From: Planctomycetota bacterium
GTDB taxonomy: Bacteria; Planctomycetota; GCA-002687715; CAIWVZ01
Assembly (NCBI GenBank): GCA_044222185.1
Contig: JBGANV010000003.1
Coordinates: 160,001 to 224,000 of the forward strand
Direction of reading: 5' to 3'
DNA length: 64,000 nucleotides
Shown: piece by piece, positions 1 through 51,221 of the stretch
How the letters are laid out: every line of letters starts with the position of its first letter
Numbering within the stretch: the stretch's first letter is position 1
Program-made: the position numbers and the translations under genes
Notes under the pieces: model-generated
Told to the model about the DNA's origin: nothing
What the model saw: only the letters and a program-made list of their open reading frames with translations
The model's database searches: none

Positions 1-475
1 CCAGACGGGTGCGAACGGCATCCTCGGTTCATTCAACCAGGCGACGGCCGTCGCGGGCACGAGCTGGAAGCTCACCCGTTCGAACTTCTATCCGCCGACG
101 GCACGGCTGACGCGCACCGGTGACGGCTCCGCCGGCAACGCACTGGCGTTGACGGTGATCGGCCAGGCGTCGAAGCCGGTCGTGATCACGGCCGGCACGC
201 TCCTCGGACCGACGTTCGCGCCGCCCTACGGCCGCCTCGAGCTGAACTACGCGGATCCGTCGTCGTTCGTCGTGCTGGCGGACGGTGTCGGCATGACCGG
301 CGCCGCCGATCCGAACGCCGTCACGTCGAGTGGCTGCGACTACACGTTCAGCGCCGTCCTGCCGGTTGCAGTCCCGTCGCTGCTCACGGTGTACTTCGAG
401 GCCATCGTCTTCGATGGAAACGCCCCGGGTGGCTACTGGTGGCGTTCGAACGTCGCCCAGGTCACGGGACTCTGA
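1..475 (+). CDS. 3' end of a putative secreted protein (5'-truncated by window) ending in the recurrent C-terminal domain
   Basis: Frame is open from nt 2 to TGA at 473-475. It ends ...VLADGVG...VYFEAIVFDG...RSNVAQVTGL, resembling other C-termini in this window. Confidence 0.75.
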   Translation, partial: QTGANGILGSFNQATAVAGTSWKLTRSNFYPPTARLTRTGDGSAGNALALTVIGQASKPVVITAGTLLGPTFAPPYGRLELNYADPSSFVVLADGVGMTGAADPNAVTSSGCDYTFSAVLPVAVPSLLTVYFEAIVFDGNAPGGYWWRSNVAQVTGL

Positions 476-595
476 TCGGCGCATAGGACGATCCGCCGAC
501 ACGGATCACCTCGCCAGAACGCGGCGGCCATCGGTCACGGTGGCTGCCGCGTCTTTCGTCGTGGAGGACCGGAACGGGACGAGAGACAATCGCCC

Positions 596-1180
596 ATGAC
601 GCGACCCGACGCCTTGCTCTTCGACGCGTGGATGCGGAGGTCCTTCGACCAGTGGGTCGGCCCGATCTCGCCGGAACGACGGGCCGAATACGACTCGACC
701 GTGACCGCGGTCGCGGCAGCGATGACGTCGCGCGGTGACCGGTTCTGGTGCGAGATCCCGCGCGCGATCCAGAAGACGTTCGGTCCGCGCGGCTTCGCCT
801 GGAACGGCATCTACCGTGTCTCGGCGCGAACGCTGGAGCTCGTCGCTGCCGCAGGCCCACCAGTCTGTACCGCGCTGCCCCTCGCCGGGGGACCGGGCTC
901 GTCGGGCATGTGCTGGGATGGCGTCCTCATGAACCAGACGCTCGTCGCTGGCGACGTGAAACGGTGGCCCGGCTACGTGTCCTGCGACGGTGAGAGCGGC
1001 CTGCGAACGGTTGCAGGCCTCGTCTGTCCGATCCGCGAAAGCGGCGGCCGGCCGATCGCCGTGTGGGACCTGGACAGCACGCGCCCGCTCGCGCCCGAGG
1101 ATCCCCTGTTCTTCGACCGGCTGTTCGCGACGCTTTCGATCGCTGCGGAACCGGTTGCGAACGACCTCGAGCCTCATTGA
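596..1180 (+). CDS. msrC: GAF-domain protein, free methionine-R-sulfoxide reductase (fRMsr/YebR)-like
   Basis: W.G.Y, GPPVC, GMC, PGYVSCD, LVCPI and DLDS motifs with the three Cys typical of fRMsr. Confidence 0.7.
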   Translation: MTRPDALLFDAWMRRSFDQWVGPISPERRAEYDSTVTAVAAAMTSRGDRFWCEIPRAIQKTFGPRGFAWNGIYRVSARTLELVAAAGPPVCTALPLAGGPGSSGMCWDGVLMNQTLVAGDVKRWPGYVSCDGESGLRTVAGLVCPIRESGGRPIAVWDLDSTRPLAPEDPLFFDRLFATLSIAAEPVANDLEPH

Positions 1181-1249
1181 GGTGGAATCCGGCTCGGAGC
1201 GGCAGGCGCGCCCGCCGCACGGCTACCATGCGCCCCTGGAGAGCCTTGG

Positions 1250-5076: not shown

Positions 5077-7437
5077 ATGCGACGTGTCGTCTTCCTCAGC
5101 GGCCGATCGATCTGGCCAGCACTCGCCCTCGCCGTGTCCTTCTTCGGCGGCGCAGCGACCGCTCAGCGGGACACGGGCCCGGAGACACCCGAACCCCGTT
5201 TTGCCGACCGCGTGCTGTTCTTCGAGCCCGACTACCTGCGCGGCCGTGTATCGACCGATCCTGATTGGACGGCTCCGTCGGCGGCTTTGGGACCCCCGAC
5301 CCAGTCCGTCGGCGGGTACGTCGCGCTCGGGGGCGGGGGGCGCCTCGCGGTCGGGTTCACGAGGGTGTGGATTGCGTGCAGCGGCGACGGGCGGCCGGAT
5401 CTCACGATCTCCAAGGCACGCGACAGAAAAGCCTGCGACGTTTTCGTGAAACCCGCCGACCGATCGACGGAGAGCGCATTGATCGCCGCCGAGTACCTGG
5501 GCGACGCCGCCGGGTGGTTTCGCGTCGGCAGGGCCGCCGACGAGGTTGAACCCTTCGACCTGGACTCCTGCTTCACGCGAGCCGCAGGGTGCAGTCTTCG
5601 ATTCCGCGGTGTGCGCCTCGACGACGCCAACCCGAGGGATGGAGACGCGCTCGCGGGCGCGGCCATCGACGCCGTCGCCGCGTTGAGCTGGGTCGAGGCC
5701 GAGCATCAACTCGATTCCGCCGAAGCCTCGCTTCGCGTGTTCGGCGAGTCCGACGACACGTGGCCACGGGCGATCGAGGTCAACGTCAACGAAGCGCGCA
5801 GGCTCCACGTCGAGGTGCGCGCCGCGCCCTTCACGCCGTTCATGATCCTCTTCTCGCCGGCGGGGCTCGTCGAGCATGCCGGCCTGCCAATGGACGGAGG
5901 CATCGTCGACCTCGACCCGCGGGACGGAATCCGCGTCATCCTCGACGGGATCCATCGTTCGGGCGGAACGCGCTTCGACCCGGACGCCGTAACGGACGAA
6001 TTCGGTACGTGGTCGTTCAGCGTCCCATTGCCCGAGATCGACCCGTCGTCGGTGACCGACCCGAGGGCTCACCTCGGCGCCATCCAGGTCGCCGTCCGGG
6101 ACCCCCTGCGGCCACGATCGGTGATCCTCACGGGCGCGGCGGACATGACGCTCGTCGCGGCCCGCCCACGCGCGGGGATCTTCGTCGCGCGCCTCGACGA
6201 CGTGGACCGCGCCGACGGTTCGCCGCAGCGGCCGTTCCCCAGCGTCACGGAGGGTCTGGCCGCCGCCCGGGCGTCCCACGCAACGCAGTTGTGGGTCGCG
6301 GCTGGCGTCTATCACGAGAGCCCCGTGTTCCCCGACGGCGTCTCGGTGCACGGCGGACTCAACCCGGAGGACTGGCACCCGGTCGCCGGGGCGTGGTCGA
6401 CATTCGCCGTGGGCTCCGTTCCCGCCCAGGTCGAACGCTGCACCATGCCGACGCTCGTCGAGTGGCTCGAGTTCTTCGCGGAGACGCCCATTCGCCCCGG
6501 TCGCAATTCGACGGCGCTCGAGATCAACCAGTCGACGCCTGCGCTCGAGTTCCGCGACTGCCGTTTCTTCGCCGACCGCGGTGCCGACGGCGCTGACGGC
6601 GTCGTACGCCCCGATGTCCCCGGCTCCTTCGGGGGCGACGGTGGCCGTGGCGGGAGTCGACTGAACGAAGCGGGACACCGCGGCCTGAGCGGCGAACTCG
6701 GTGCGACGGGCGGCGCGGGTGGTGCGGCGTCGGCGATGGGAAGTGGTTCTCCAGGTCATGACGGGTCGGCCGGTGCGCTCGTTCGCCCCGGGCGCAACGG
6801 CGAACGCGCACCCGACGGAACACTCTCCGAGACCGGGTGGATCACCGGCGCGGGCGGCGACGGCACGGATGGCGACGCGGGACGCGGCGGCGGTGGTGGC
6901 GGAGGTGGCGGCGCTGGGGCCGCGCCCGGGCCGCGCAACCGCCGCATCACCGTGCCCGGCGGCGCGGGCGGGGCCGGCGGTCGCGGAGGCGACGGTGGCG
7001 GCGCCGGCATCGGAGGCCTCGGCGGCGGCGGTTCGTTCGCAGTGACGCTGATCAACGCAAGCCCGGTGTTCTGCGGCTGCACGTTCCGTGCGCAGCGCGG
7101 CGGCGCGGGTGGGGCCGGCGCCGACGGTCACCCGGGGACGGACGGATTCGCGGGAATCGCCGGCGTCCCAGGCGCGTCCTTCGGTGGCGTCACGGGTGGC
7201 ACGGGCGGAGCGGGCGGTCGCGGCACCCGAGGCGGTGCCGGTGGCGGCGGAGGGGGTGGCAACGGTGGCCCGAGCTACTGCGTGCTTCGAGCTGGAATCA
7301 GCATTCCGACGCTGATCCGCTGCGGGAATCACTTCGTGACGGACTTCGGCGGCGCAGGCGGCCGCGGCGGCACGCACGGGTCGGGCTTGAGCACCGCTCC
7401 CGCGGGCGTCGACGGCGTCGCGGCATCGACCAACTGA
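5077..7437 (+). CDS. Secreted multidomain protein with a DUF1565-like motif and a PE_PGRS-like Gly-rich C-terminal half
   Basis: Signal peptide, DGSPQRPFPSVTEGL...VAAGVYHE motif, and long GGXGG runs at ~6580-7400. Confidence 0.7.
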   Translation: MRRVVFLSGRSIWPALALAVSFFGGAATAQRDTGPETPEPRFADRVLFFEPDYLRGRVSTDPDWTAPSAALGPPTQSVGGYVALGGGGRLAVGFTRVWIACSGDGRPDLTISKARDRKACDVFVKPADRSTESALIAAEYLGDAAGWFRVGRAADEVEPFDLDSCFTRAAGCSLRFRGVRLDDANPRDGDALAGAAIDAVAALSWVEAEHQLDSAEASLRVFGESDDTWPRAIEVNVNEARRLHVEVRAAPFTPFMILFSPAGLVEHAGLPMDGGIVDLDPRDGIRVILDGIHRSGGTRFDPDAVTDEFGTWSFSVPLPEIDPSSVTDPRAHLGAIQVAVRDPLRPRSVILTGAADMTLVAARPRAGIFVARLDDVDRADGSPQRPFPSVTEGLAAARASHATQLWVAAGVYHESPVFPDGVSVHGGLNPEDWHPVAGAWSTFAVGSVPAQVERCTMPTLVEWLEFFAETPIRPGRNSTALEINQSTPALEFRDCRFFADRGADGADGVVRPDVPGSFGGDGGRGGSRLNEAGHRGLSGELGATGGAGGAASAMGSGSPGHDGSAGALVRPGRNGERAPDGTLSETGWITGAGGDGTDGDAGRGGGGGGGGGAGAAPGPRNRRITVPGGAGGAGGRGGDGGGAGIGGLGGGGSFAVTLINASPVFCGCTFRAQRGGAGGAGADGHPGTDGFAGIAGVPGASFGGVTGGTGGAGGRGTRGGAGGGGGGGNGGPSYCVLRAGISIPTLIRCGNHFVTDFGGAGGRGGTHGSGLSTAPAGVDGVAASTN

Positions 7438-10894: not shown

Positions 10895-12298
10895 TCACGG
10901 TGACCCGAGGACGAGCCTCAACCCGCGCGTGAGGGTCGCACCGCCGAGCTGCGGGAACGCCGTACTCGTCGGGTCCAGGACGAGGATCTGCACGTAGCAG
11001 ACGGCCGCCATGAGCTGCGGATCCGGCGGGATGGCGACGCCGAGCGCGCCCTGACCGCTGCCATTCGTCGGAAACGTCAGGGGCAGTCCCGGCGCGGGAA
11101 GGATGATCCGCGTGACGTCGACGTAGACGTGCGTGCTCGGCGTCACGGCGACGTCGTCATACGCGGCGCTCACCACGATCAGCGCAGACGAGTTGGGGGC
11201 GGCACCCTGCACGCCCAGGGTGAACGACGGATTGCCCAGGAAGGGATTGCTCGTGCTCGTGAGCTGCGGCACCGCTCCGGCCGACGGATTCCCGTAGAGA
11301 GCGCGCGCGGCGGGAACGGCATGGGGCGTGGCCGTCGTGTACCAGGGTGCCGTCAGTGGATCGCCTCGGAAGAAGGCGTCGAGCAGGCTCGCCACCTTGA
11401 ACCGCGCGAGGACGTTCGGGTGCGTTCCGTCGGACGGTTGGAAGTCGCGGCACTCCCAGACGAGACCGTCGCTCCGAGGTGTGAGTCCGTCGGCCCAAAG
11501 GTACGGACCCCACGAGACCCACGGAGCCATCACGGGTCCCATCGCCGGATCGAAATTCAACGACGGGTCACCGTTGATCTGGCTCTCGATGAGCCACTTC
11601 ACGGAGAAGCCGCTTTGGTAGGCGTGCGGCTCGGGGTTCAGCGTCGTGCTCGCGTAGCCGGCGTAGGTGCGGCTCGAGAAGAATGCGGCACGGACGTTCG
11701 TGAACTTGGCATGGAGATTCCGCGCGATGCTTGCGAGATCGGCCTGAAGGATCTGCGCGTCCAACGGGAACGGCTGGGTGGGGCCGATCTCGGCTTCCTT
11801 CACCCAGCAAGCCTGGACTTGCGCCGCGGTGACTCCAGCCGAGGTGAGGCGCTGCTGAACGACCGTCCAGAAATTGGAGTTCGGGTTGGCGACGACGGCC
11901 GCATCCTGGCCGCCCTGCGCGCCGTCGACGACGACGAGCCTGGGATTTCGCAGCGGGTCGCCGTTCGACACGCCGAGGAACTGCGTGAACTCCTGGGTCG
12001 TGTTCGACATCCCGATGGACAGAAACACGATCCTCCCGGTTGCGCTGGGGGCTCCGGAGGCGTCCCGCGGCACGATCCCCGCGATCTGCGCAGCTCCGGC
12101 TGCCGCGTGCGCCAGCGGCCGAACGTTCGCCCCGCCGGGATAGAGGCCGCCCTGGAACCCCTGGTAGGTCCCCGTCCCAAGATCGTTCAACGGCACGAGC
12201 CCCGTGGTGACTCCAGCGCAGTTCTGGGCCCGAGCCGCACCGATGCATGCGAACGTGAGCGCGACGGCAAACACCGCGAGTCGAGGCTTGACGACCAT
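10895..12298 (-). CDS. Secreted SGNH/GDSL-like hydrolase plus recurrent C-terminal domain
   Basis: GAGGAGG RBS, signal peptide, SIGMSN (block I-like) and DGTHP (DxxH). Tail is IPPDPQL...YVQILVLDP...LTRGLRLVLG. Confidence 0.7.
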   Translation of the reverse strand: MVVKPRLAVFAVALTFACIGAARAQNCAGVTTGLVPLNDLGTGTYQGFQGGLYPGGANVRPLAHAAAGAAQIAGIVPRDASGAPSATGRIVFLSIGMSNTTQEFTQFLGVSNGDPLRNPRLVVVDGAQGGQDAAVVANPNSNFWTVVQQRLTSAGVTAAQVQACWVKEAEIGPTQPFPLDAQILQADLASIARNLHAKFTNVRAAFFSSRTYAGYASTTLNPEPHAYQSGFSVKWLIESQINGDPSLNFDPAMGPVMAPWVSWGPYLWADGLTPRSDGLVWECRDFQPSDGTHPNVLARFKVASLLDAFFRGDPLTAPWYTTATPHAVPAARALYGNPSAGAVPQLTSTSNPFLGNPSFTLGVQGAAPNSSALIVVSAAYDDVAVTPSTHVYVDVTRIILPAPGLPLTFPTNGSGQGALGVAIPPDPQLMAAVCYVQILVLDPTSTAFPQLGGATLTRGLRLVLGSP

Positions 12299-12348: not shown

Positions 12349-14214
12349 TCAGTACCCGAACTGCAACGACAGCGCGTTGCTCAACGTGAACCGCAGCGAT
12401 GGGTTCCCAACCACGGGCGGTCCGGCGGCATCGAGGATGATCGCCTGCACGGCGAACGACATCCCGGCGAGCGGCGGAACCGCGGGCACGGGAAGCGGAA
12501 ACTGGCACGCGCCGAGGCCGGACGTCGTCGCGGTCCCGAGAGGATTCAACCCCGCCTGCGTGAGGGCCGCGAAGCCCGCCAGGTCGAGACGGAGGATGCA
12601 GCCGTTGCCCACGTCGAGCGCGGGCCCGACGCTCGTGCTGGCGAACAACGTCGCCGCCGAGAGAGGGGCCCCGGTCGCGAGCGTCGCCGCGAAGGTTGGA
12701 TTGCCGAGGGTCGGCAGGCCCGCGCCACCGAGTTGCGGGATGAGGTTGAAGAAACCCGGGCAGCCCTGCCCGACGACCGACTTCTGCGCGAGTGCCGAGG
12801 ACTGCTGGATCGTGATGCGCTGGTTCGTGGTGACCCCGAGGAGGACGTCGGTCGTGCCGTCCATCCAGTGAACGATGACCTGATCCACCGTCGCCGCGGC
12901 TCCGCAACCGAAGTGCGCCGGCAAGAGGTTCTGGCTGAACGCGCCCGACGCCGAGTTCATCAGTCGATATTGGTGCGTCGCCCCGATCACGACTTCGACC
13001 GTGGCCCCGATCGCCGACCGATTGTCCCGAGTCCCGCGCGGTGTGACCTGGAGCCAGTGGTTCGCCGACCCCGAGTTCCGATAGAGCTTGTCGCGATTCA
13101 GCGCGCCGACGTGGATGTCGAGATCGCCGTCGTTGTCGTAGTCGACGAACGCGCAGTCGTAGCCGTTCGTGTTGCTCGCGTTCGCGCCCGCGGCATTGGG
13201 GACGACCTGGAACGTCAGGTTGCCGAGGTTGCGGTAGAGGAGGTTGGGCCCGGCGGGCATCGACAGGTAGATGTCGACGAGTCCATCGTTGTCGTAGTCG
13301 CCGATGTCGCACCCGCGACCGTAGGATGGCGGCCCAAAAAGCCCCGCCGCCTGGGCGACGTCGAGCATCGGGAGAACGCCGTCGTTCCGATAGAGGTGGT
13401 TGGGTTCGCCCGCCGCACCTGCGACGAAGAGGTCGTAGTCTCCGTCACCGTCGAAGTCGGCCCACTCGGTGCCGTACGTATTCGGTGAGTAGTCGACGCC
13501 GGCAGCGGCAGCGATCTCCGTGTAGTTCGGCTGGCCCGTTCCGATCCGATTGTTGCGGAAGAGTCGATTGACCGTCGCGCCGGAGCAGGTCGAGAGGAAG
13601 CAGTCGACGTCCCCGTCGCTGTCGAAGTCACACCACGCCACGCCGTACGCGTGGGCCTGCGGATCCGCCAGGCCCGTCGACTGGCTGACGTCCGCGAAGA
13701 CGCCACCGTGGTTCTCGAAGAAGGTGAACGGCGTCAGTTCCTTCGCGACGAAGAGATCCAGATCGCCGTCATTGTCGTGGTCGACCCAGGTGACGGACTG
13801 CGCGAACTCCGAGTTCGCCGCACCGATGGCGGCCGAGACGTCCACGAACGGCCCTGGGTACTGGTTGCGGAAGAGGTTGTTTCCCGCGAAGTTCCCCAGG
13901 TAGAGGTCGGGCTTGCCGTCACCGTCGTAATCCGCCCAGGCACACGACCAGCCGCTCGACGCATGAGAGGTCCCCATGGCCGCCGTGACGTCGACGAACA
14001 CTCCACCGTCGTTGCGAAACAGGCGACTCGTGCCGCCATTGTTTTGAACGTAGACGTCGAAGTCGCCGTCGCCGTCGAAGTCAGCCCAGCCCATTCCTCT
14101 CGTCTGATCGTTCGCGCTGGGGAACCCGGCGGCCGTCGCGACGTCCGTGAACGCCTGTCCCCGAACGAGCGCACAGAGCAATGCGGTTACGGCGAGCGAT
14201 CGAACGGGTGACAT
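12349..14214 (-). CDS. CRTAC1-like protein (FG-GAP/VCBS repeats + ASPIC/UnbV) plus recurrent C-terminal domain
   Basis: Seven D(F/Y/H)DxDGxxD repeats, then NHWL...NRSAIGA.V...HFG.G...V.W.DG. Tail is LSNALSLQFGY. Confidence 0.9.
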   Translation of the reverse strand: MSPVRSLAVTALLCALVRGQAFTDVATAAGFPSANDQTRGMGWADFDGDGDFDVYVQNNGGTSRLFRNDGGVFVDVTAAMGTSHASSGWSCAWADYDGDGKPDLYLGNFAGNNLFRNQYPGPFVDVSAAIGAANSEFAQSVTWVDHDNDGDLDLFVAKELTPFTFFENHGGVFADVSQSTGLADPQAHAYGVAWCDFDSDGDVDCFLSTCSGATVNRLFRNNRIGTGQPNYTEIAAAAGVDYSPNTYGTEWADFDGDGDYDLFVAGAAGEPNHLYRNDGVLPMLDVAQAAGLFGPPSYGRGCDIGDYDNDGLVDIYLSMPAGPNLLYRNLGNLTFQVVPNAAGANASNTNGYDCAFVDYDNDGDLDIHVGALNRDKLYRNSGSANHWLQVTPRGTRDNRSAIGATVEVVIGATHQYRLMNSASGAFSQNLLPAHFGCGAAATVDQVIVHWMDGTTDVLLGVTTNQRITIQQSSALAQKSVVGQGCPGFFNLIPQLGGAGLPTLGNPTFAATLATGAPLSAATLFASTSVGPALDVGNGCILRLDLAGFAALTQAGLNPLGTATTSGLGACQFPLPVPAVPPLAGMSFAVQAIILDAAGPPVVGNPSLRFTLSNALSLQFGY

Positions 14215-18598: not shown

Positions 18599-18606
18599 GA
18601 CCCACC

Positions 18607-34420: not shown

Positions 34421-34610
34421 GAACGTCCAAGACACCGTGTCGCAGGGCTGCGCGACTCAAAAGACCCGGCTTGGTACTTCCGGATTCGGGCTCGGAGGAC
34501 TACGCTCGCCGCTGATGCAACCCGGACGTGCGTGTGCCCGTCCGCGACCGCAGGGGCGCCAATGCCGGCGCCGAGAGAGTTCTCACCCATCCAACATGGA
34601 GTCCGTCCCG

Positions 34611-35687
34611 ATGAGAGTTTCCGCCATCCTGATCGCAACCGCGCTGACCACGACGCTCGCCGTCGCGCAGACGTTCCCGAACGGCCTCTACTACCGATTC
34701 AACGAAGGGGCGGGCACCGCCACGCAGAACCTGGCGAATCCCCAGGTCGGAACAGCATTCGGCAACTTCGTCGGCTCACCCACCTGGACGGCCGGTCAAT
34801 TCGGCACCGCCTACGCCAACACCGGGGTCGCCACCAACTACGTCGACTCCGGGTGGCCGGTCAATTTCACGAACACGTCGTGGACCCTCGAGTATTGGGT
34901 CAGCCTCAACTCGATCACGACGACGATCAGCTACATGTGCGGTGACACGTCGACGGGCTTCCGCACGTTCAGCGGCGGTGTCGCCGGGTCGAACGGCATC
35001 ATCCTCCGCGGCACCGGAATCACCGACTGCTGGATCAACCCGGCCGTGAGCGCCGCCGCCACGTGGGCGCACGTCGCGTGGGTCTACGACAACTCGGTCA
35101 CTCCGAAGGTGATCTACGGCTACCTGAACGGCGTGCTCGCCGTGACGTCGGTGCAGGCCACCCCCATCACGGTGACCTCGGCGAACAACTTCCGGGTCGG
35201 CGCCCAGACGACCGCCACGGCGCTCAATGGCTCGATGGACGAGTTCCGGCTCTGGTTCGTCGCGCGTTCGGCGGCCGACATCATCGCGAACTACAACCTC
35301 GAGGTGAACGATCGCAACATCCTCAACGTCACGACGACGGGCGCCGGCACTGGGGACCTCGCGGTCTCGTTGACGAACATCGACCCGAATGCCGTAGAGG
35401 GCTATTTGCTCATCTCCGCCACGCCGCCAGCCATCGTCGGAACGGGCCCGCTCCTCGGACTGAACCCGGACGGTCTGACCTGGTCGATCTTCAGCATTCC
35501 GTCGTTCCCCGGGAACCCGCTCCACTTCCCGATCGGATTCGTCGGCTTCTTCCCTGACGTGCCGTTCACCGTCGGCGCGGGAGGCGGAGCCGTCTTCGCT
35601 GGCCAGACGTGGGATTTCGCCGCCGCCGTGTTGGGCACGGGTGTGACGTACCTGGGGCGATCCGGAGTGAAGCGCATCACCTGGTGA
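34611..35687 (+). CDS. Secreted LamG/concanavalin-like protein with a C-terminal extension
   Basis: Signal peptide, YYRFNEGAG, WTLEYW, WAHVAWVYD, YLNGV and GSMDEFRLW motifs. The tail is a divergent version of the recurrent domain. Confidence 0.85.
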   Translation: MRVSAILIATALTTTLAVAQTFPNGLYYRFNEGAGTATQNLANPQVGTAFGNFVGSPTWTAGQFGTAYANTGVATNYVDSGWPVNFTNTSWTLEYWVSLNSITTTISYMCGDTSTGFRTFSGGVAGSNGIILRGTGITDCWINPAVSAAATWAHVAWVYDNSVTPKVIYGYLNGVLAVTSVQATPITVTSANNFRVGAQTTATALNGSMDEFRLWFVARSAADIIANYNLEVNDRNILNVTTTGAGTGDLAVSLTNIDPNAVEGYLLISATPPAIVGTGPLLGLNPDGLTWSIFSIPSFPGNPLHFPIGFVGFFPDVPFTVGAGGGAVFAGQTWDFAAAVLGTGVTYLGRSGVKRITW

Positions 35688-40199: not shown

Positions 40200-41663
40200 A
40201 TGAACATGCAGATCCGAATCGTCACCGCCACCCTCGCCCTCTTCGTCGCGACGACGGCCGCCGCGCAAACTCCCCCGGACGCCTATCACATCGCCTTCTC
40301 CGTCAGCGGTGGAGCCGTCGCGAACTACCCGACGCCGTTGACGAACCCCGTGAACCCGGCGATCGCGTTCACGAACCAGACGATCGCGCTGGTCGATCCA
40401 AGCAGCACGGCGACGAACACGGCCTACGCCATCTCGGACACGGCGACATGGGCGGCCTGGCTCGGTGACTCGGACGGCGACGGCAACTACGCCGAATCGA
40501 TCATCCTGTCCGTGGACGCGATCGATCTCCCCGCGGGATCGCGGAACCCGCCGACGATCTTCGATTTCCTCGTCTCGTTCCAGAACGACATCGGATCGAC
40601 GGGAGCGCTCAACGGCGTTCTCGTCCGTGACGGCGACGTCGTCCGCCTGCGACCGGGTGGCGGAGTCACGCCATTCATGACGGAGACCCAGTTCATCTCG
40701 GCCATCGGAAACCTGGCACCGACGACCTTCGACATCGACGCATTCGCGATCGACCCCGCGACTGACGACATCTACTTCAGCGTCGATGCGGACACGCTGG
40801 TGGCGGGGTTCACGCTCCGCCGGGACGGTGACCTGTACGTCATCCGGAGCTCGAACTACACGCTGGGCGCGAACGGCTCCGTGACCTCGGTCGTTCCGGG
40901 TTCGGCCCAAGTTGCCCTGGCGGAATCGGCCGTGAACGCCCGGTTCACGGCTGCGGGTCTCACCGGTGGACTCCTGGACCTGAAGGCCATCGAGATCGAT
41001 CCCCGCGGCGGCACGTTCACGAGCTCCGCCGGCGTGTGCCCGAACCTCCTGTTCTGCGGTGACAACACGGCGCACGGCGCGACGATCGTGTCGACGGTCG
41101 GCGGCGGCACGGTGTTCAGCCTGCAGGGCGACAACAACCAGCAGATCGTCTTCAACAACCCGCTGCGGCTCGGGATCCTGAACAACCCGGGGTCGTTCCA
41201 GTTCAACACGATCGCGAACCTCGCGATCGGCGTCGGGTTCCTGGAGACGACGCCGCGGTTCCTGGACACGGACTCCGTCGGCTATCAGACGCCGGGCGTG
41301 CTCCGTCTGGACATGACCGGGCTCGCGCCGAATGCACCGGTGCTGCTGCTTGCCCGCCATGGAACGACGTCGCCGTCCGGGACGATCACCAGCCGCCTCG
41401 ACATCGACACGGTCTCTTTCCCGGGGATCAACCTGGACCGCGCGGGCGGATTCCGCGAGCTCTACCTGATCGACCCCGCGGACTCGATCTTCAATCTCTC
41501 ACTCAGCCTGCCCGCGCTGATCGCCGACGCCAACGGCCGCGCGACGCGCACGTTCAACGTGCCGTTCCTGAACCCGGGGATCGGGTTCTGCTTCCAGGCC
41601 TTCGACACCTCGAACACCACGCTGACGACGCCGGTGATCCCCGTCACGATCTTCATTCCGTGA
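40200..41663 (+). CDS. Secreted protein with D(I/V)DA-type repeats plus recurrent C-terminal domain
   Basis: GAGG RBS, signal peptide, and repeats VDAIDL..VSF..RDGDVV / IDAFAID..YFS..RDGDL. Tail is ADANGRA...VP...CFQAFD. Confidence 0.8.
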   Translation: MNMQIRIVTATLALFVATTAAAQTPPDAYHIAFSVSGGAVANYPTPLTNPVNPAIAFTNQTIALVDPSSTATNTAYAISDTATWAAWLGDSDGDGNYAESIILSVDAIDLPAGSRNPPTIFDFLVSFQNDIGSTGALNGVLVRDGDVVRLRPGGGVTPFMTETQFISAIGNLAPTTFDIDAFAIDPATDDIYFSVDADTLVAGFTLRRDGDLYVIRSSNYTLGANGSVTSVVPGSAQVALAESAVNARFTAAGLTGGLLDLKAIEIDPRGGTFTSSAGVCPNLLFCGDNTAHGATIVSTVGGGTVFSLQGDNNQQIVFNNPLRLGILNNPGSFQFNTIANLAIGVGFLETTPRFLDTDSVGYQTPGVLRLDMTGLAPNAPVLLLARHGTTSPSGTITSRLDIDTVSFPGINLDRAGGFRELYLIDPADSIFNLSLSLPALIADANGRATRTFNVPFLNPGIGFCFQAFDTSNTTLTTPVIPVTIFIP

Positions 41664-41704: not shown

Positions 41705-43156
41705 TCAGCGCCAGGCGAACACGAGACCGGATTGCGTCCGACTCCACCCGGCGGCGAAAGTTGCGAATGCGATCTGGCTTCCGGTAGCGACGTCCACGAG
41801 CCCGATGTCGTTCGGCCCGTTGCCGATGAACGCGTAGAGCGTCGCCGTCAGCAGGTACTTCCCGCTGGGTGAGACCCCGAGCACCCACCGTCCGTCCTGC
41901 GATGGCTGGGAGTACGGAACCGCCGTCGTGGTGACGCTCGACGGGTCCGCCAGATCGAGATGCACCGCTCGAATCGAGTCCGTCGACACCGCATAGGCGT
42001 CCACCCCATTGCGAGCCGAGACGTAGGTGAACGCAGGCGTTGCGGTCGAAAGCTGGGCGCTCGTGAGCGCCCCGATCCAGCTTCCACTCGCCTGGTCATG
42101 GCGGTGGATCGTTGTCGCCCCGCCGGCGGTGACCTGGGTCACCGCGACCGAGATCAGGCGTCCGGTTCCCGTCATCGTCGGGCGGCCGATCAGGATCCCG
42201 AACCCGATCGCGAACGGCGACGGCGCCACGCTCATCGGTTGCAGGTATGACGCGCTCGTCGGATCGGTTTGAAGGATCGCGAGGCCACCGATGGAGCGGA
42301 TCACGGCGAGCCGCAGGCCGTCGTTCGAAAGTTCCATCTGGTATCCCGGCTCCGTCGTCTGCGCGAGGAGCGAGCCGAACCCGGCCGACTGGGGCGAAGC
42401 CTCGAACACGCGGAGGCCCGCCCCCCCACCGATCGCGTAGAGCCGGTCGTGAACGCGATCGAAACACAGGTTCTGGCATCCGCCGGGTGCGATCAGGGAG
42501 ACGACTGGCGCGGGCGACGTCGTATCCACGACCCAGACGCCATCCGTCGCGGCGATGAAGAGGTCCCGCCCGCCGCTCCCGAAGACGAGATCGTTGACCC
42601 AGAACCCGGGCGACGGGGGCGGAATCGTCGTCACGGCGCCGAGGATCGGGTCCAGGAGCGCGATGACGCCGTTCGGCTGAGTCATCGCCAGCATGGAGTG
42701 GCGAGAGACGTCGAGGAAGAGCGGCTGAGTGGCGCCGATGCCCCCGGCCGACGATGGAGAGACGACGGCGGCCTGCGCGTAGGCATTCAGGCCCATGAGC
42801 TCCGGGACCTCCGGTCCAGCGAGCGGTCGCGCCAGGGTGCCACGTCCTGCGGCGTCGAGCGTTCCGAGGCCGACGTCGATGACGTCCTCGCCGGCCAGGC
42901 TCGGGTACAGCGCGAGCCCGAGGAAGGACTGGTCGGCGCGGCGGACCGAGGCCACGAGGAAGAACGTGCCGTTGGCCGGGCCGCCGACGATCTCGTAGCC
43001 GAACTGCATGTTCCCGAGCCACGGCGGCTGACCGACGAGCGCAGGCGTCCTGCCATCGACGGGAGTCCCCTGCCCGAATGGGAACTGACCGGAGGCCGAT
43101 GTCGACAGGAACGACGACAAGGACACGGCGAACAGCACCGCTACGGTTCGAATCAT
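41705..43156 (-). CDS. Secreted beta-propeller (YncE-like) protein carrying the recurrent domain at its N-terminus
   Basis: Signal peptide, then FGQG...PWLGN...LDAAGRG...PELMG..AYAQAAV, then propeller blades (GSGGRDLF, SNDGLRL, SPSGKYL). Confidence 0.75.
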   Translation of the reverse strand: MIRTVAVLFAVSLSSFLSTSASGQFPFGQGTPVDGRTPALVGQPPWLGNMQFGYEIVGGPANGTFFLVASVRRADQSFLGLALYPSLAGEDVIDVGLGTLDAAGRGTLARPLAGPEVPELMGLNAYAQAAVVSPSSAGGIGATQPLFLDVSRHSMLAMTQPNGVIALLDPILGAVTTIPPPSPGFWVNDLVFGSGGRDLFIAATDGVWVVDTTSPAPVVSLIAPGGCQNLCFDRVHDRLYAIGGGAGLRVFEASPQSAGFGSLLAQTTEPGYQMELSNDGLRLAVIRSIGGLAILQTDPTSASYLQPMSVAPSPFAIGFGILIGRPTMTGTGRLISVAVTQVTAGGATTIHRHDQASGSWIGALTSAQLSTATPAFTYVSARNGVDAYAVSTDSIRAVHLDLADPSSVTTTAVPYSQPSQDGRWVLGVSPSGKYLLTATLYAFIGNGPNDIGLVDVATGSQIAFATFAAGWSRTQSGLVFAWR

Positions 43157-45060: not shown

Positions 45061-46559
45061 TCACGGGATCGTGAACGTCCCCGTCCCGCCGATGTCGCGG
45101 ATCACGAACCCATTCGCCGTGACGTCGAACGTCACGGCGGCGGTGAACAGCCGCGGCCCGCAGAGCGCCGGCTCCGCAGGCAGCGCGAGGACCGATGTCG
45201 CGGCCCCGGCACCATCGAGCGCTCCGGTGAACCCCTGGAACACGCTGGGGCGGCCGGGGATCGGGTCGAGGATGATCGACGGTCGAGCCCGATTCGGCAG
45301 CCGTCGCCCGTAGCGAGGCCGGTGCGTGCGTGCGCCGACATCCCGAGGAGGCAACCGGCGCCGTGCGAAGCGGCCGCTCCCACGGCGAAGGTCGTCGACG
45401 CACCAGGTCCACCGATGGAGCCGATCGTGTGCACGATCGCAGCAGGCCATCCCTCGATGCGCAGATCGTCGATGGCGCATTCCGTGCCCGAGTCGCCCGG
45501 GACATCCGCAACGCGAAAGCGACCGCGCGTCGCGCTCGCAGGAACGATGAACGCGTCCAACGTGACGCGATGCTCGGTCCAACTGTTCCGCCGACCGCGG
45601 ACCTCATCGACCCTCACCCAGGATCCACCACCATCGTTCGAGACGTCGATCACAACCGCGTCATCGTGATCGTCGTTCGCGAGCGTGGTCGTCCTCGGGC
45701 TGCCACGGGAACCACCCGCCCGGCGAGACGATCAGGCCCGCCTGGACGGGATCCACGCGCGTCCACGCGCCGTCACCGAAGTCGAGGGCCAAGCCCACGG
45801 TCCACCCCGACGGATTCTCTCGGTCATCGCTCGCGATCCTCGCCCCAACGCCGGCGAACAGCGGGACGGTCACCGTGCGCGTGATCCCGTCCAACACGAG
45901 CGTGGCCGACGATCCAACGGCTGCGCCCGTCGGAACCGCAGCTGCAAGGGTGATCCGGAACGTGGCGGTTGCGTTCGAGCGCGACGCCGCAGCGCCTGGC
46001 GTCGTGGCGGAATTCGTCACGAGCCGGACATGCGGTGAGAGCGCCGTCACAGACGCGGCGACCTGACCGCTCGTCCCCCGCCGACCCACGTTGCGAAGCG
46101 TCGAGACGACGTCGAGCGCCTCGCCGGCCTCCAGCCATGTGTCGCCATCGCCGCTCACTCGAACGGCCTGCGTCCCGGCAAGCGCATCGAACGCAGCCAC
46201 CCTCTCCGCGAACGTGCCCCCCCCATGCGTCCCGAGCCCACATCCGGAAACGAGTCGAGCGGCGACGCCAGGCCTTCCTGGACGTGGGCGATCCGGTCTT
46301 CGTGCACCATGACCGAGGAAAGCCCCGCCTGGTCCAACATCGCCAACGCTGCCGGAGAGTTGATGAGGACCGGGACCCAGCCGGGATCGACGTGGTTTGG
46401 GATCACATCCAGGTCGAGCCCGCCCAACGATGGAACGCGGCTGCCGTCGGAACGTGGGCCTTCGCCTCGGAGGAACGCTCGGGCGTCGGCGCGTCGGCGA
46501 CTCCGGCAAGCGCGAACGCCGAGAGCGCCACGGCGAGGACGAAGGCGATGAGCGCCATG
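45061..46559 (-). pseudogene. Degraded secreted protein, probably an M14 carboxypeptidase-T-like relic with frameshifts and internal deletions
   Basis: Protein-like pieces run in successive frames: signal peptide MALIAFVLAV; prodomain ...GSGRMGG; TFAERVAAFDAL; GDGD..LEAGE..LRNVG; VSNDGGGSW...IDDLRIEG; tail ALDGAGAA...LPAEPALCG. Confidence 0.6.
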
Positions 46560-46715: not shown

Positions 46716-47771
46716 TCAGAACCCGAGCGTGAGATCGATGGCATTCGAAAGCGCGAACGACGGGTTGCCACCGAACTGGATCGCCTGGGTCGCGACGAAG
46801 ATTCCCGCCAGTGCAGGGTCCGGCGGGAGTGGAATCGAGAAGCTCGCCTGTGGCCCGGCGATCGGCGGAGTGAGCTCGAAGACCGGGAAGTCGATGAGCA
46901 GCACCTGCCCGCTGGCGAGCGCGAGCTGTGTCGCGGCAGCCGACAAGAAGATCTGCGCGGCGGCGTGGTTCGTCGGGGCGAGGTCGACGTTCCCGCTCCA
47001 CGACTGGCCAAGGCGCGGGAGCGACGACGTGTAGGACTGTGGGTTGGGAGGGACGTTGCGCGACGTTGCCAGAGCCGGGCCCTGAAGCGCGAGCGTCACC
47101 GACACCTGGTATCCGCCCGTGAACGGGAAGGAGTTGAAGATGCTCTCGGCGCGATTCTGAACGCTCAACGAGTACTGCCCCGGCCCGAGCGTCCCGCGCG
47201 TCACGAGCGTGAACGTCCCAGGAGGCCCGAGCCCGGTCGAATACGGCGGCGGCGTCACCCCCGGGTCGGGCGTGATGCTCGATCCGCTGAAGCTGTACGC
47301 AGCACTCGAGACGAGCGTCTCGTTGCTCGTCGCGCTGAGGGCGACGTTCAGGGTGAAGTGAACGGGTGCGGGCACCGTGAACGTCCATTGGTCGCGTGCA
47401 TCCGCAACGGCGCTCGAGCCTGCGGGCCCGACCGGTCCGCGCATGGCGTTGCCGATGGCTGAGATCGAGAGGCTCGTCGGAGTGGGAATCACCGTGAGCT
47501 GCGAACCGGCGGAACTCGGGAGCCACGTCGGACCGCCCGGGTCGCTCACGGCGATCGTGTCGGCCGTCGGAGTCGTCGTCGTGAACGTGTGAGATCCCGA
47601 GGGACCCCCGAACTGCCCGCAGTACGCGAGGTTCGTCCCGAAACGGCTGACGTACGTCATCGTCACCTGCGACTGACCGAAGCCACGTGACGCCGCACAA
47701 GCGACGACGATTCCGAGCACGAGGCCTCGAGCCCCGAGACGAGCGAACCAATCATTCGACGAGCCGTGCAT
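46716..47771 (-). CDS. Secreted beta-sandwich protein plus recurrent C-terminal domain
   Basis: Signal peptide and Ser/Thr/Gly-rich domain. Tail is PRLGQSW...IPLPPDPALAGIFVATQA...LSNAIDLTLGF. Confidence 0.8.
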   Translation of the reverse strand: MHGSSNDWFARLGARGLVLGIVVACAASRGFGQSQVTMTYVSRFGTNLAYCGQFGGPSGSHTFTTTTPTADTIAVSDPGGPTWLPSSAGSQLTVIPTPTSLSISAIGNAMRGPVGPAGSSAVADARDQWTFTVPAPVHFTLNVALSATSNETLVSSAAYSFSGSSITPDPGVTPPPYSTGLGPPGTFTLVTRGTLGPGQYSLSVQNRAESIFNSFPFTGGYQVSVTLALQGPALATSRNVPPNPQSYTSSLPRLGQSWSGNVDLAPTNHAAAQIFLSAAATQLALASGQVLLIDFPVFELTPPIAGPQASFSIPLPPDPALAGIFVATQAIQFGGNPSFALSNAIDLTLGF

Positions 47772-48175: not shown

Positions 48176-49582
48176 CTACGAGAGCGCGATCTTCACCTGC
48201 TTGCCGATGGCGACCAGTTCGGCGTCCTGCTCGGCGGGCGTGAGAGCCGCGAGGGGACGCGATGGGTCGTTGGCTGCCTGGAACTCGGACAGCGGCGTCT
48301 CCGCAAACGCGCTGGCGCGAACGGCGATCCACAGAATGATCAGCCCCTCGGTACTCGCCGCCTTGAGGATGCGAGGAAGTTCCTCGTCGGCGACGAAGTC
48401 GGAAGCGAGGAACGACGGCGTGACGAGCAGGATCGCGACACGCGTGCGGCGCAAGGCCACCTCGATCTCGCTCTTCCACTTCGCCCCTGGCGCGATGCTC
48501 TGGTCGTCCCAGACCTCGACCGCCTTGTGGCGAACGTAGGGTTTCAGCGCTTCGCGAATGCGATCGAGCCACTCGTGGTCCTTGTGGCTGTAGCTGATGA
48601 ACACCCGGTCGCGGACATAGCCCGAGAGTGCACTGTTGAACGCCGTCATTGCGCGCGCGGCGCCGGCCTCGGCGCGATCGTCGTGGGAAACCCTTGCGCG
48701 ATCCTGCGCGGGCGCAGGGACGCGGCGCGTTCCCTCGACGAGCGCGGACAGCTCCGGAATCGCCTCCTCGGCGGCACGACGCCCAGACGCGATCAGCCCG
48801 TCCTTGCGTGCCGCTGACATTCCGAACTCGTCGATCCGCACGCCGAGCGACGGGATGTCGACGATGCCGACTCGGCCCATCTGGTCGACCAGGTACTCGT
48901 CGCGCGTCCACCCACCGATCGCAAACAGCTGGCCGAGGAAACCGGCCAGGTTCGATTCGCGCACGGACTCCTGAGGATTGGACGCGGGACGGAGCACAAC
49001 GATCGGGAGGTCCTCGTCGTGGTGCGCTGCAAGCCAGACGGGACACGGGGACGCGAGCGCACCATCGACGACGATCCGCCCGTCGCGTTCGTGCGGCGGG
49101 TACATGAACGGCGCGGACACGGCGATCCGCATCGCCTCCGACATGCGCAGATCCGGCGTGGTCTGACGCGAGTAGACGAGGAGATGGCGCGAGACGAGAT
49201 CGACGCCGATCGTCGCGAACGGTTTCTGGAGCTGCGCGAACGTCGGATCCGCGCCGAGGATCCGCGGAAGCTCGCTGGCGATGCCCGGCTCCGAGTACGC
49301 AGCGAACGGCCACGACCACATGGAGCCCACGAACGGCAGGGCCGCCAGGCGGTGCTTCACTCCGGCCAGCCGCGAGAAGTCGATCGCGATCACGAGACGC
49401 TGCACGTCGCGGGGCGCGATGCCCGAAGCGAGCATGGCGCCGTACAAAGATCCCGCCGATGCCGCCGAGATGCTGGCTACTTCGAAGCCGGCCTCGTCGA
49501 GCACCGCGACGGCGCCCGCGTATGCGACGGCTCGCATCCCGCCCGCCGCCAGCACGAGGTGAACACGCCTCCGATCGTTCAT
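48176..49582 (-). CDS. Patatin-like phospholipase fused to a C-terminal TIR domain
   Basis: Patatin motifs AAGGMR, AASAG and VDGA. TIR motifs VFISYSHKD, WDD..I.PG..W..EI, LLVTPSFLASDF and EELP. Alternative start at 49606. Confidence 0.88.
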   Translation of the reverse strand: MNDRRRVHLVLAAGGMRAVAYAGAVAVLDEAGFEVASISAASAGSLYGAMLASGIAPRDVQRLVIAIDFSRLAGVKHRLAALPFVGSMWSWPFAAYSEPGIASELPRILGADPTFAQLQKPFATIGVDLVSRHLLVYSRQTTPDLRMSEAMRIAVSAPFMYPPHERDGRIVVDGALASPCPVWLAAHHDEDLPIVVLRPASNPQESVRESNLAGFLGQLFAIGGWTRDEYLVDQMGRVGIVDIPSLGVRIDEFGMSAARKDGLIASGRRAAEEAIPELSALVEGTRRVPAPAQDRARVSHDDRAEAGAARAMTAFNSALSGYVRDRVFISYSHKDHEWLDRIREALKPYVRHKAVEVWDDQSIAPGAKWKSEIEVALRRTRVAILLVTPSFLASDFVADEELPRILKAASTEGLIILWIAVRASAFAETPLSEFQAANDPSRPLAALTPAEQDAELVAIGKQVKIALS

Positions 49583-49802
49583 CGATCGCCCTCGCCGTCC
49601 GGACATGCCGGACCACCGGACCGCAACAGCTCATGCCCGTTCCGGGCGGAACGGTACCCGATCGATGCGCGCGGACCACGGTCGCCCCCGCGCGAGCCTA
49701 CCCATGCGACGTCACTTTTCAGCTCAGCGTGACGCTTGAGTGAAGGGCGGAAGTCTTCGAACGGCAAGCGACTCGCTTGATGGAATCCGCCGGGAACAAG
49801 CC

Positions 49803-51221
49803 ATGAAAAGCACCACATTGCTTCGGTTGATCGCGCTCGCAGGACTCGTGGGACCAACGTTCGCTCAGAGTGGGCCATGGACCGACGGCGAAGTCGTCGT
49901 GTTGTCTCCCGCGAGCGGCGGCGGCGGGCTCGCGCTCCACCGCATCGCACCGGAGACCGGCCACGGCGAGGTGCTCGTCGGTGGCTCGTCGGGATATGGC
50001 GGATGGTCGGGAAAAGTCGCATTCGACCCCTATCGCAACGCACTCCTCGTCAACCTCGCGCTGCCGCCCGACGGACTGTTCACCTACAAGCTCTGGGCCG
50101 TCAACTGGGACGGCACGAAGGCTGCAATCCCCGGCTTCAGCGGAGCCACGCTCCGCGCGCTCTGTCCCACCGGCGACGGGCGCGTCTACTTCCAGGACCA
50201 CGCAACGGGCGCGACGAATGCGATCCAGTACATCGACTCCGCCAACACGATTCACACGCTGATGAACTCGACGAACACCGCGCCGTTCCTCTTCGCGGTC
50301 GAGCACATGATCTTCCACGCTCCGAGCAACTCGCTGATTGCAAGCACGTCGAGCTGGTGGTCGACGAACGACTGTGCGTCCACGGGTTCGAGCCTGTTCC
50401 GGATCCCGCTCTCGACCGACGGCTCACGGGTCTCGGGGGCCGTGACGTGCACGAGCGTGAGCAATGCCTACGCCGCCGAGGAGATCATGTCTCTCGATTA
50501 CCTGCCGGGGGGGAATCTGCTCATCACGCTGGCGTCAGGTGTGCCGGGCTATGCGCCCGACAAGCTGATGTCCGTGAATCCTTGGACACTCGCCGTGAGC
50601 GGCTGGGCGCACCCGGCGCAGATGGACCTGAACGGCGGGCTCTACAGCACCCGCATCGGGAAGGCGATCGTTCTGGATGACGGACCAAATCAACTTCGCA
50701 CCTTCGTCCCCGGTCAGCCCGGGCTCGGGACTCTGCTGGCGTGTGACGTGCCACTCGGGGACGCCACGACTGGTTACAGCCCGGCTGAATCGATCTGGGA
50801 GATCGACACCAATGGCCCCGGATGTCAAGGACTCACGCACACGTTCGGTGCGGGCCTCGCCGGGAGCAACAACGTCATCCCGGCGCTTGGCGTCGTCGGT
50901 TGCCCCGACGTGAACAGCAGCTTCACCATCTCGATCGACAACGTCGTGGGAGGAGCGAGCGGACTCCTGGTCGTCGGCACTGCGCCTGCGGCAATCCCGG
51001 CGCTCGGCGGCACGCTCTACGTCTACCCCATCGCGCTGCAGTTTCCGGTGACCGTCGGAGGGACCCCGGGCGCGGCCGGTGCGGGTTCGTTCGGACTGCC
51101 GCTCCTCGTGACGGATCCCGCGCTGACCGGCCTGACCCTCTTCATGCAAGCGGGCTTCATCGACGGCACCGCGGTCCAAGGTGTCTCCCTCACGAACGGC
51201 CTCCAGCTCGTGATCGGGTGA
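49803..51221 (+). CDS. Secreted beta-propeller-like protein plus recurrent C-terminal domain
   Basis: Signal peptide MKSTTLLRLIALAG...AQ. Tail is FGAG.AG...DPALTGLTLFMQAGFID...LTNGLQLVIG. Confidence 0.8.
   Translation: MKSTTLLRLIALAGLVGPTFAQSGPWTDGEVVVLSPASGGGGLALHRIAPETGHGEVLVGGSSGYGGWSGKVAFDPYRNALLVNLALPPDGLFTYKLWAVNWDGTKAAIPGFSGATLRALCPTGDGRVYFQDHATGATNAIQYIDSANTIHTLMNSTNTAPFLFAVEHMIFHAPSNSLIASTSSWWSTNDCASTGSSLFRIPLSTDGSRVSGAVTCTSVSNAYAAEEIMSLDYLPGGNLLITLASGVPGYAPDKLMSVNPWTLAVSGWAHPAQMDLNGGLYSTRIGKAIVLDDGPNQLRTFVPGQPGLGTLLACDVPLGDATTGYSPAESIWEIDTNGPGCQGLTHTFGAGLAGSNNVIPALGVVGCPDVNSSFTISIDNVVGGASGLLVVGTAPAAIPALGGTLYVYPIALQFPVTVGGTPGAAGAGSFGLPLLVTDPALTGLTLFMQAGFIDGTAVQGVSLTNGLQLVIG

Follow-up and report, generated by a model that had tools for sequence, protein, structure and literature searches.

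The window, that is, the whole stretch of 64,000 nucleotides that was analysed, encodes a series of proteins carrying a shared domain, which falls into two families (A and B):

2..475, +: 3' end of the gene for a 698-aa exported protein, with start and signal peptide upstream of the window; family-A domain at ~146-472 (E 5e-5, held out)
5806..6153, +: possible internal copy of low confidence in gene 5077-7437 (E 0.14; not recovered in the genome-wide scan)
10895..12298, -: 467-aa signal-peptide protein, cargo without Pfam match; family-A domain at 10898-11290; tailed orthologue in a relative (G006; 47% identity)
12349..14214, -: 621-aa FG-GAP and ASPIC/UnbV protein with signal peptide; family-A domain at 12352-12750
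23075..27772, -: 1565-aa trypsin-like protease with TIG / choice-of-anchor Z repeats; family-A (subtype C) domain at 23078-23470
34596..35687, +: 363-aa LamG protein; family-B domain at 35316-35684 (modelled, pLDDT 96)
40200..41663, +: 487-aa signal-peptide protein; divergent family-A-like domain at ~41319-41660 (E 0.027)
41705..43156, -: 483-aa signal-peptide protein; N-terminal family-A domain at 42719-43045 (E 6e-11)
45061..46200, -: relic gene, broken cargo fragments akin to a tailed paralog; family-A domain across two reading frames
46716..47771, -: 351-aa signal-peptide protein; family-A domain at 46719-47060
49803..51221, +: 472-aa signal-peptide protein; family-A domain at 50850-51218 (modelled, pLDDT 88)
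61770..64000, +: 948-aa Sortilin/Vps10-type propeller protein, possibly a lipoprotein, running past the window; family-B domain just beyond it

A preliminary description of the locus had listed nine similar protein tails, all of which translate as stated, in the coding frame, each ending at a stop. Because tail-versus-tail BLAST is weak (best E 0.001 in a nine-sequence database), a held-out HMM was chosen, seeded with four window tails, iterated solely on ORFs outside the window (209 domains) and then run on the window. The seed tails match at E 1e-17 to 1e-12, and four of the five held-out tails are also recovered: three at E 6e-5 or better (23075 at 3e-5, 1-475 at 5e-5, and the relic 45061, with its domain split over two frames, at 6e-5) and 41260-41663 at only 0.027. 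At E<=1e-3, reversed ORFs give 0 matches versus 288 real ones. The tail at 35320-35687 is not recovered by the family-A model and represents family B. The nine tails are all real, and eight belong to family A (one weakly, one as a frameshifted relic, which could also reflect an assembly error). Two copies had been overlooked, the N-terminal one in 41705-43156 and that of the B-tailed gene leaving the window from 61770. Sec signal peptides are present on every complete window carrier, as described, including the 1-475 gene. The cargo labels FG-GAP/ASPIC, trypsin-like protease with TIG repeats, and LamG are supported by Pfam, but 'SGNH-like' and 'propeller' are not.

Family B (seeded by the 35320 tail) has 48 copies; each lies no more than 10 aa from the stop, and none overlaps family A. 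When the 41260 tail is used as seed, it yields a five-member group, three members of which already lie within A. Comparison of A and B by hhalign gives 80% (E 1e-5) on large alignments and 1% (E 0.05) on A1 versus A2; a bridging HMM matches 43 A and 61 B members, and the AlphaFold models of the two have an identical order of elements. From these sequence and model comparisons, common ancestry of A and B appears likely, although not proven.

AlphaFold models of A and B copies are all-beta and globular, and the domain is predicted to fold as an Ig/Fn3-like beta-sandwich, ~112 aa long, into which a hydrophobic hairpin is inserted and which has a short E-F helix. Foldseek gives no match at E<=0.001, and the fold searches return no structural match above background and no distinct PDB match. 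The preliminary description could name no Pfam for the tail, and the domain is indeed absent from Pfam and NCBIfam, which give at most single chance matches to 64 A and 41 B copies; its caution that the tail may already be modelled is not borne out in these databases, and its concern about a known Ig family holds for the fold (Ig/Fn3-like), yet not for any known family. In the ESM Atlas, the top matches (0.97-0.98) are unnamed Planctomycetota clusters; the named matches CHRD and Spondin_N (0.75-0.83) are probably cargo labels and were set aside. At 50% identity the family comprises 28,130 clusters. A literature search, which covered the main text of mostly open-access papers, gave no description of the domain.

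In the host genome (93.8% complete), the domain is carried by about a tenth of the genes (463 of the 4847 called proteins), and carriers account for 14.6% of residues. After masking of the domain, 438 cargoes fall into 170 clusters, in agreement with the proposed cargo-independence, and A and B tails replace one another on one cargo family. Within these 438 carriers the domain is C-terminal in 369, N-terminal and directly behind the signal peptide in 29, internal in 19, solo or a fragment in 19, and tandem in 2. The idea of a strictly C-terminal sorting tag is not upheld, as in ~16% of carriers the domain is N-terminal, internal, alone or tandem with conserved residues unchanged; motif residues are alike in 192 terminal and 37 non-terminal copies. 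Cargoes reach ~3300 aa and include multihaem cytochromes; CxxCH motifs occur in 12 carriers, two of which have nine. P0091, with 11 apparent repeats, was rejected as a spurious match on an unrelated repeat protein. The domain is found in all 23 genomes of the host's class; among 150 genomes, 30 have at least seven matches, one has a single match and 119 have none, an all-or-none presence by family that supports the suggested lineage restriction. There was no match in five genomes reached via loci of other lineages, nor in four of five reached via Planctomycetota-titled loci.

By a loose heuristic, a signal-peptide-like start is present in 333/356 carriers versus 1827/4140 other proteins, consistent with the expected co-occurrence, and such a start combined with a +1 Gln in 299/356 versus 661/4140; this strong Gln bias resembles the Q-rule of Bacteroidetes, as set out in the accessible part of PMC5837995. 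A later hydrophobic helix follows the signal peptide in only 6/360 carriers, and the tail, as had been noted, lacks a TM-plus-basic end and is nearly Lys-free (0.2%). The cargoes are low in charge: their median K+E+R is 5%, against 17% for the remaining exported proteins, and 306/333 cargoes (counting only families seeded from window tails) and 89/96 long metagenomic representatives are below 9%. The domain occurs on 332/440 low-charge versus 0/799 high-charge signal-peptide proteins; the remaining 108/440 have no HMM match, some having visibly divergent tails and others none. The single high-charge carrier was discarded, as it appears to join a kinase ORF, in frame, to the signal-peptide gene downstream of it.

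In four cargo families, the charge of tail-less paralogs in the aligned region is mostly about double that of the tailed ones, or higher: ASPIC (tailed 0.06 vs. tail-less 0.17), SBBP (0.02-0.05 vs. 0.10), peroxidase-like (0.10-0.12 vs. 0.17-0.21) and M1-peptidase-like (0.09 vs. 0.17-0.19). One tail-less SBBP paralog is also low in charge (0.067), which counts against a role as an anchor. As internal controls, BamA, Skp, the secretins and the T2SS pseudopilins lie at 0.15-0.28 and three candidate major pilins at 0.08-0.10, values that agree with the accessible part of PMC2932507; low charge, taken as the sign of an extracellular location, indicates location only indirectly. The domain is rare on lipoproteins, occurring on 1/11 low-charge lipoproteins versus 336/399 low-charge Gln-type proteins, where the lipoprotein count was filtered after the data had been seen (10 of 21 rows dropped, 6 tailed and 4 tail-less) and several of the 11 are paralogs. 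One putative lipoprotein has a B tail, and three of the four tail-less matches to the ASPIC domain of the window have a lipobox. The envelope-docking part of the earlier proposal thereby gains support from the composition partition and the rarity on lipoproteins, but the dedicated machinery that it placed elsewhere was not found by neighbourhood, profile or barrel screening. Neighbourhoods of 11 tailed-gene loci in relatives contain housekeeping genes and no shared machine; phylogenetic profiling across 150 genomes, suggested as a route to a partner, gave GspD (65/151), a short lipidated secretin (47/151) and a Skp-like protein (56/151), none exclusive to carriers; and a heuristic outer-membrane barrel screen yielded 26 candidates (by inspection porins, BamA, TamA/B and a TonB-dependent receptor), none of them SprA-sized.

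The host encodes a T2SS, with GspE at 647.8 bits (above the TIGR02533 cut-off of 630.25) and GspD at 331 bits (just under the TIGR02517 cut-off of 351). By sequence inspection, F, G, H, I and J adjoin GspE/GspD, and K, L and M lie elsewhere; no GspC was identified in the host genome. A T2SS secretin is present in 29/30 domain-rich genomes versus 35/120 with one or no copy, a co-occurrence for which shared ancestry can account.

We consider the chances about even that the domain is an uncleaved surface anchor or address on exported proteins of several Planctomycetota families, probably via the T2SS; that it serves their surface proteome as the standard module for address and retention is a finely balanced proposition. 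In the path proposed, carriers are, as their sequences show, exported by Sec and cleaved by signal peptidase I, which usually leaves Gln at the N-terminus. Periplasmic folding and maturation, including disulfides and c-type haems, would follow, and the folded protein would then cross the outer membrane, most likely by the T2SS, because this is the sole folded-protein route found in the host genome. The domain, still uncleaved, may then attach non-covalently to a putative partner at the outer surface (e.g., an outer-membrane lipid, LPS, protein or glycan layer), and would fill the role that a lipid anchor has in lipoproteins.

It is unlikely, though deserving of serious consideration, that the domain is instead a portable folded export signal read by the T2SS (secretin N0, GspC/L/M or pseudopilus tip), with retention secondary or absent. 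Near-confinement of the domain to the low-charge class is consistent with this, as are the retention of the T2SS even in relatives of 2.4-2.9 Mb, a stand-alone N0-like protein encoded among tailed genes, and the occurrence of non-terminal copies, as a folded signal does not have to sit at a protein end. T2SS signals are regarded as structural, and in Pel3 a loop of the Fn3 domain is used, according to the accessible part of PMC7949064. However, T2SS-type secretins are common in genomes without the domain, no T2SS component is co-distributed exclusively with it, and low-charge lipoproteins and about one-quarter of low-charge exported proteins have no detected copy. The stronger claim, that the domain is a portable folded T2SS address, necessary as well as sufficient for sending hundreds of unrelated folded proteins through the secretin and holding them at the surface, is doubtful; such an address would give the T2SS its first discrete signal domain and open its choice of substrates to direct testing. 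Any reading of the domain by the T2SS would bear on substrate choice, called elusive in the accessible part of PMC7949064.

A self-assembling coat, lattice or fibre built from the domain, with cargoes co-assembled (S-layer-like display), is distinctly improbable. There are domain-only and triple-tandem proteins, two paralogs in a set of four related domain-only ones exceed the 96th percentile of codon bias, and known S-layers are built of Ig-like folds (with weak, tied matches to 8cka and 7ptp); but copies share just 14-39% identity with the first row of A1, carriers have an unremarkable median codon bias (54th percentile), and the domain-only subfamily is found in the host family alone (3/151 genomes), where it forms part of longer ORFs. 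A three-copy A1 homo-oligomer prediction, with a score of zero, speaks neither for nor against assembly.

There is little probability that the domain is an ordinary accessory ligand-binding Ig/Fn3 module (for carbohydrate, lipid or metal) or stabiliser, spread by shuffling without a sorting system. Structural matches to generic Ig/Fn3/MG folds only (best VIA-align Z 8.3 for A and 7.7 for B), N-terminal, internal and tandem copies, and a faint profile likeness to neocarzinostatin apoproteins (PF00960; E 0.02-0.09) are compatible with such a module. Nevertheless, carriers nearly always have a single copy (4 surplus ones among 364 domains), on ~75% of one compositional class and none of the other, with all-or-none presence by family; and PF00960 does not pick up family copies.

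Very improbable is a cleaved C-terminal sorting signal (T9SS, PEP-CTERM or GlyGly-CTERM type) with a divergent translocon or sortase: family B is exclusively and the carriers are predominantly C-terminal, the C-terminal region of PorU (6za2 residues 1048-1156; Z 7.0, rmsd 4.1, 102 aligned) is among structural matches tied with many unrelated Ig folds, and the host has three C25 peptidases, but these are not in a T9SS-like context (one is itself B-tailed), the domain has no TM segment, and the 29 N-terminal carriers, like the 19 internal ones, keep the same conserved residues, which makes a cleaved T9SS- or PEP-CTERM-type tag unlikely.

As a family the domain is very large, yet neither Pfam nor NCBIfam has a model for it. 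A role as surface address or anchor, if correct, would delimit at a stroke the surface proteome of several Planctomycetota families about which little is known and add a display principle without sortase or T9SS, from which a portable surface-display tag may follow.

The T9SS type A CTD of Bacteroidota (TIGR04183 / PF18962) is likewise a small Ig-like sandwich that ends many unrelated Sec-exported proteins; however, it spans 72 positions, versus ~112 with a hairpin insert in the nearly Lys-free domain described here, which also occurs N-terminally, internally and solo. TIGR04183 / Por_Secre_tail matches 0/64 A and 0/41 B copies (genome-wide best E 0.086, below the cut-off, which controls also missed). 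SprA (TIGR04189) was not found in four carrier genomes, one of them single-contig (Bacteroidota control, 2521 bits), and the host genome has no match to PorV (PF19572; Bacteroides control positive) or PF14349 (no control positive). PEP-CTERM/exosortase systems likewise involve large lineage-specific exported families with a terminal tag, but the domain lacks their TM-plus-basic end, and no exosortase (PF09721) was found in the host genome (control positive in one archaeon). Neocarzinostatin-type apoproteins and Fn3/MG/Ig folds are similar beta-sandwiches, without a structural match above background; PF00960 reaches a best E of 0.08 in the genome and is not among the folds listed in the fold searches. 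Dockerin, SLH and similar modules are folded, uncleaved, cargo-independent anchors usable at either protein end. The domain would share these properties and work from either end as they do, rather than as a cleaved C-terminal signal, but it differs in fold and motifs, with no dockerin/SLH-type Pfam match to 64 A and 41 B copies at E<=0.1. The GlyGly-CTERM tag contains a TM segment. This tag is short and processed, whereas the domain is folded, globular, without TM and not required to be C-terminal, and no NCBIfam match links its copies to this tag. GlyGly-CTERM/rhombosortase with the T2SS in Vibrio is the nearest functional analogue of the anchor reading: a shared terminal tag holds T2SS cargo at the surface, and export uses a separate signal, according to the accessible part of PMC12889589.

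The domain, a module of about 112 aa with an Ig/Fn3-like fold, represents a real, uncatalogued and very large superfamily. All nine tails listed in the preliminary description were located in the sequence as quoted there, although their treatment as one family held only in part. A family-A HMM was seeded with four window tails and expanded using only ORFs from elsewhere in the genome; of the tails excluded from training, it picked up three at E 3e-5 to 6e-5 and a fourth at 0.027. It missed the tail at 35320–35687, which is the founder of a separate family, B. The same HMM identified an N-terminal copy absent from that description (gene 41705–43156; E 6e-11). In the copy at 45061 the domain is broken across two frames, with broken cargo fragments upstream. 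The converged family-A model detects 288 domains at E ≤ 1e-3, and none in reversed ORFs.

For family A, AlphaFold predicts a sandwich made entirely of beta strands (pLDDT 87.8); the family-B sandwich (pLDDT 96.4) has a single short helix within its insert. In both models the order is strands A, B, and C, a hairpin insertion, strands D and E, a short helical turn, strand F, and a G strand that is split. In favour of homology between A and B are a first hhalign comparison (80%, E 1e-5), a bridging HMM that joins members of both, the shared topology of the predicted models, and a nested distribution (12 of 12 other B-positive genomes are also A-positive), although a second comparison by hhalign fell short of significance (1%, E 0.05). 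As for membership of a known carbohydrate-binding or Ig family, the alternative raised at the outset, sequence and profile searches of Pfam, NCBIfam, and PDB sequences assigned no family, although the fold is generic: searches with both models returned only Ig, Fn3, and macroglobulin matches. No description of the domain was found in the literature searched, nor is one mentioned in passages of two preprints (bioRxiv 10.1101/817700; 10.64898/2026.10.26.761892).

In the host genome (7.08 Mb; completeness 93.8%), where the window corresponds to C7:160001–224000, all models combined detect the domain in 463 of 4847 proteins from our own gene calls, or 14.6% of residues. A single scan yielded 438 carriers (reversed control, 0), with the domain C-terminal in 369, N-terminal in 29, internal in 19, alone or fragmentary in 19, and a triple repeat in two. 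The proposed terminal position applies to most copies (237 of 288 A domains lie within 10 aa of the stop), but 47 lie more than 30 aa away, many directly after the signal peptide. Conservation falls on identical Gly, Pro, Leu, Gln, and Ser/Thr-Asn positions whether copies are terminal (192) or non-terminal (37). The cargoes are indeed unrelated, as had been claimed: once masked, the 438 fall into 170 clusters, including 123 singletons, and the biggest clusters mix A with B tails, or N- with C-terminal placement. Genes for carriers show a modest tendency to lie together (59 adjacent pairs vs. 27 expected). Other window genes include:

14286–15239, minus strand: Gcw_chp-like outer-membrane protein gene, apparently broken into two ORFs
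16133–22933, plus strand: chemotaxis-type cluster (CheA, CheB, CheR, response regulators)
48176–49582, minus strand: Patatin (PF01734, E 1e-24) and TIR (PF13676, E 4e-14) fusion without signal peptide
51918–55082, plus strand: exported propeller protein (1054 aa, low charge) lacking any A or B tail; some tailed cargoes are its homologues

The propeller protein is a counter-example to an obligatory domain. The Patatin–TIR gene, which lies between two tailed genes, is possibly an anti-phage defence gene. Despite the chemotaxis-type cluster, a genome-wide motif search found no match to the flagellin motif.

The association with signal peptides was borne out: by a loose heuristic, 333 of 356 carriers have one, vs. 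1827 of 4140 other proteins, and a signal peptide with Gln at +1 occurs in 299 and 661, respectively. This Gln bias is strong genome-wide, including in non-carriers ([AGS]Q site in 478/1027), and resembles the Bacteroidetes Q-rule as described in parts of PMC5837995, the main text of which does not contain the word Planctomycetes. The strongest new result on carriers is a partition by charge (K+E+R content), with a median of 5% in cargo regions and 17% in other exported proteins; for the window-seeded families, 306 of 333 cargoes are below 9%. With extended models, which are partly circular in that some were seeded from low-charge leftovers, the domain occurs in 332/440 signal-peptide proteins of low charge, 27/86 of intermediate charge, and 0/799 of high charge. 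Only one of 2216 high-charge proteins of at least 300 aa carries it, and this one seems to be two genes read through as a single ORF. Among 96 long profile-search representatives, a few of them from the host genome itself, 89 are below 9% and two at 12% or more. Within four cargo families, the charge of tailed paralogs is about half that of their tail-less counterparts or lower (one low-charge tail-less paralog is an exception); in the peroxidase-like family among the four the figure is about 60%. In the host, known periplasmic and outer-membrane proteins have a high charge and three candidates for major pilins a low one, a pattern that fits the composition of extracellular proteins (more Ala, Asn, Gln, Ser, Thr; less Arg) given in portions of PMC2932507. 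We infer that the domain marks proteins destined for the cell exterior.

Two further unnamed C-terminal domains, with no C-terminal overlap with A or B, occur on low-charge exported proteins: one on 35 (seed C1:835849–837858), some with an A domain upstream, and one on seven (seed C1:924615–926297).

Profile searches of the genome found no SprA, PorV, exosortase, or T9SS tail model. The genome encodes eight secretins, and the following loci bear on export:

C14:508097–510670 and C15:193765–196161: two tailed proteins, each bearing nine CxxCH motifs
C1:1541589–1552520: T2SS cluster comprising a tandem pair of GspD paralogs and GspE, F, G, H, I, J
C1:736555–737376, plus strand: 273-aa exported protein of T2SS secretin N0-N1-like domains only (33% to GspD, E 6e-28)
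C1:1909242–1912274: operon (L157, L156) with genes for a Skp-like protein and a short secretin that is lipidated and has no N0, and a GspK-like gene

CxxCH motifs occur in twelve carriers, the two with nine being candidate surface multihaem cytochromes. Because haem attachment takes place in the periplasm, such carriers must exit in a folded state. No other folded route was found, so T2SS is, by elimination, the likely export route. At the T2SS cluster GspC was not recognised, and K, L, and M are dispersed outside it. T2SS secretin N-domains are present in 29 of 30 domain-rich genomes (the exception being an assembly of 890 contigs) yet also in 35 of 120 others, which argues against a dedicated partner; that the domain is itself a T2SS export signal is unlikely. 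Recruitment of T2SS substrates is described in PMC7949064 as elusive and probably structural. The N0-N1-like protein, encoded amid tailed genes, is a candidate adaptor or relic. The Skp-like and short lipidated secretin genes are side by side in seven of seven sampled genomes of the order, and in many others; a neighbourhood survey and consideration of both as further candidates yielded nothing exclusive to carriers.

Four proteins, 65–83% identical, consist only of a signal peptide and the domain, and two have ribosomal-like codon bias:

C1:2248092, C6:570841, C10:62928, and C6:761498: L158 and its paralogs

A self-assembling coat is nonetheless quite improbable. Among 21 low-charge proteins that show a lipobox pattern, seven carry the domain; after a post hoc rule removed 10 in which a Gln-type cleavage site follows closely downstream (six tailed, four tail-less), the proportion is 1/11, vs. 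336/399 Gln-type proteins (p 2e-7, inflated by paralogy). A plain accessory module is also improbable. Three features fit an uncleaved retention module: the domain and a lipid anchor nearly exclude each other, the domain occurs once per protein, and it works from either end. A cleaved tag is the least probable reading. An anchor on T2SS-exported proteins is our preferred reading, at about even confidence. Gly, Pro, Ala, and Leu abound in the domain, and Lys (0.2%) and Arg (1.6%) are scarce, which makes it unlikely that simple electrostatics bind it to LPS phosphates.

The domain is present in 23 of 23 genomes of the host class (24 to 150 matches each). Across 150 genomes of the phylum, scored up to a ceiling of 30 matches each, 30 have at least seven matches, one has one, and 119 have none, so that presence is nearly all-or-none by family; positive genomes are kin, indicating one or a few lineages rather than independent gains. 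A profile search returned 28,130 cluster representatives (50% clustering). Most Atlas clusters of the tail belong to Planctomycetota, and the host's ProRS likewise has its nearest match (71%) in a record labelled Planctomycetota.

T9SS CTDs share their location on proteins with the domain, and dockerin and SLH modules presumably work in a similar mode. GlyGly-CTERM on T2SS cargo (PMC12889589) is a further functional analogue. The tested membership features of GlyGly-CTERM and dockerin/SLH each failed for the domain, as did those of T9SS CTDs in sequence, machinery, and position. Our verdict is that it is best read as a cargo-independent surface address or anchor, of a kind known from other systems.
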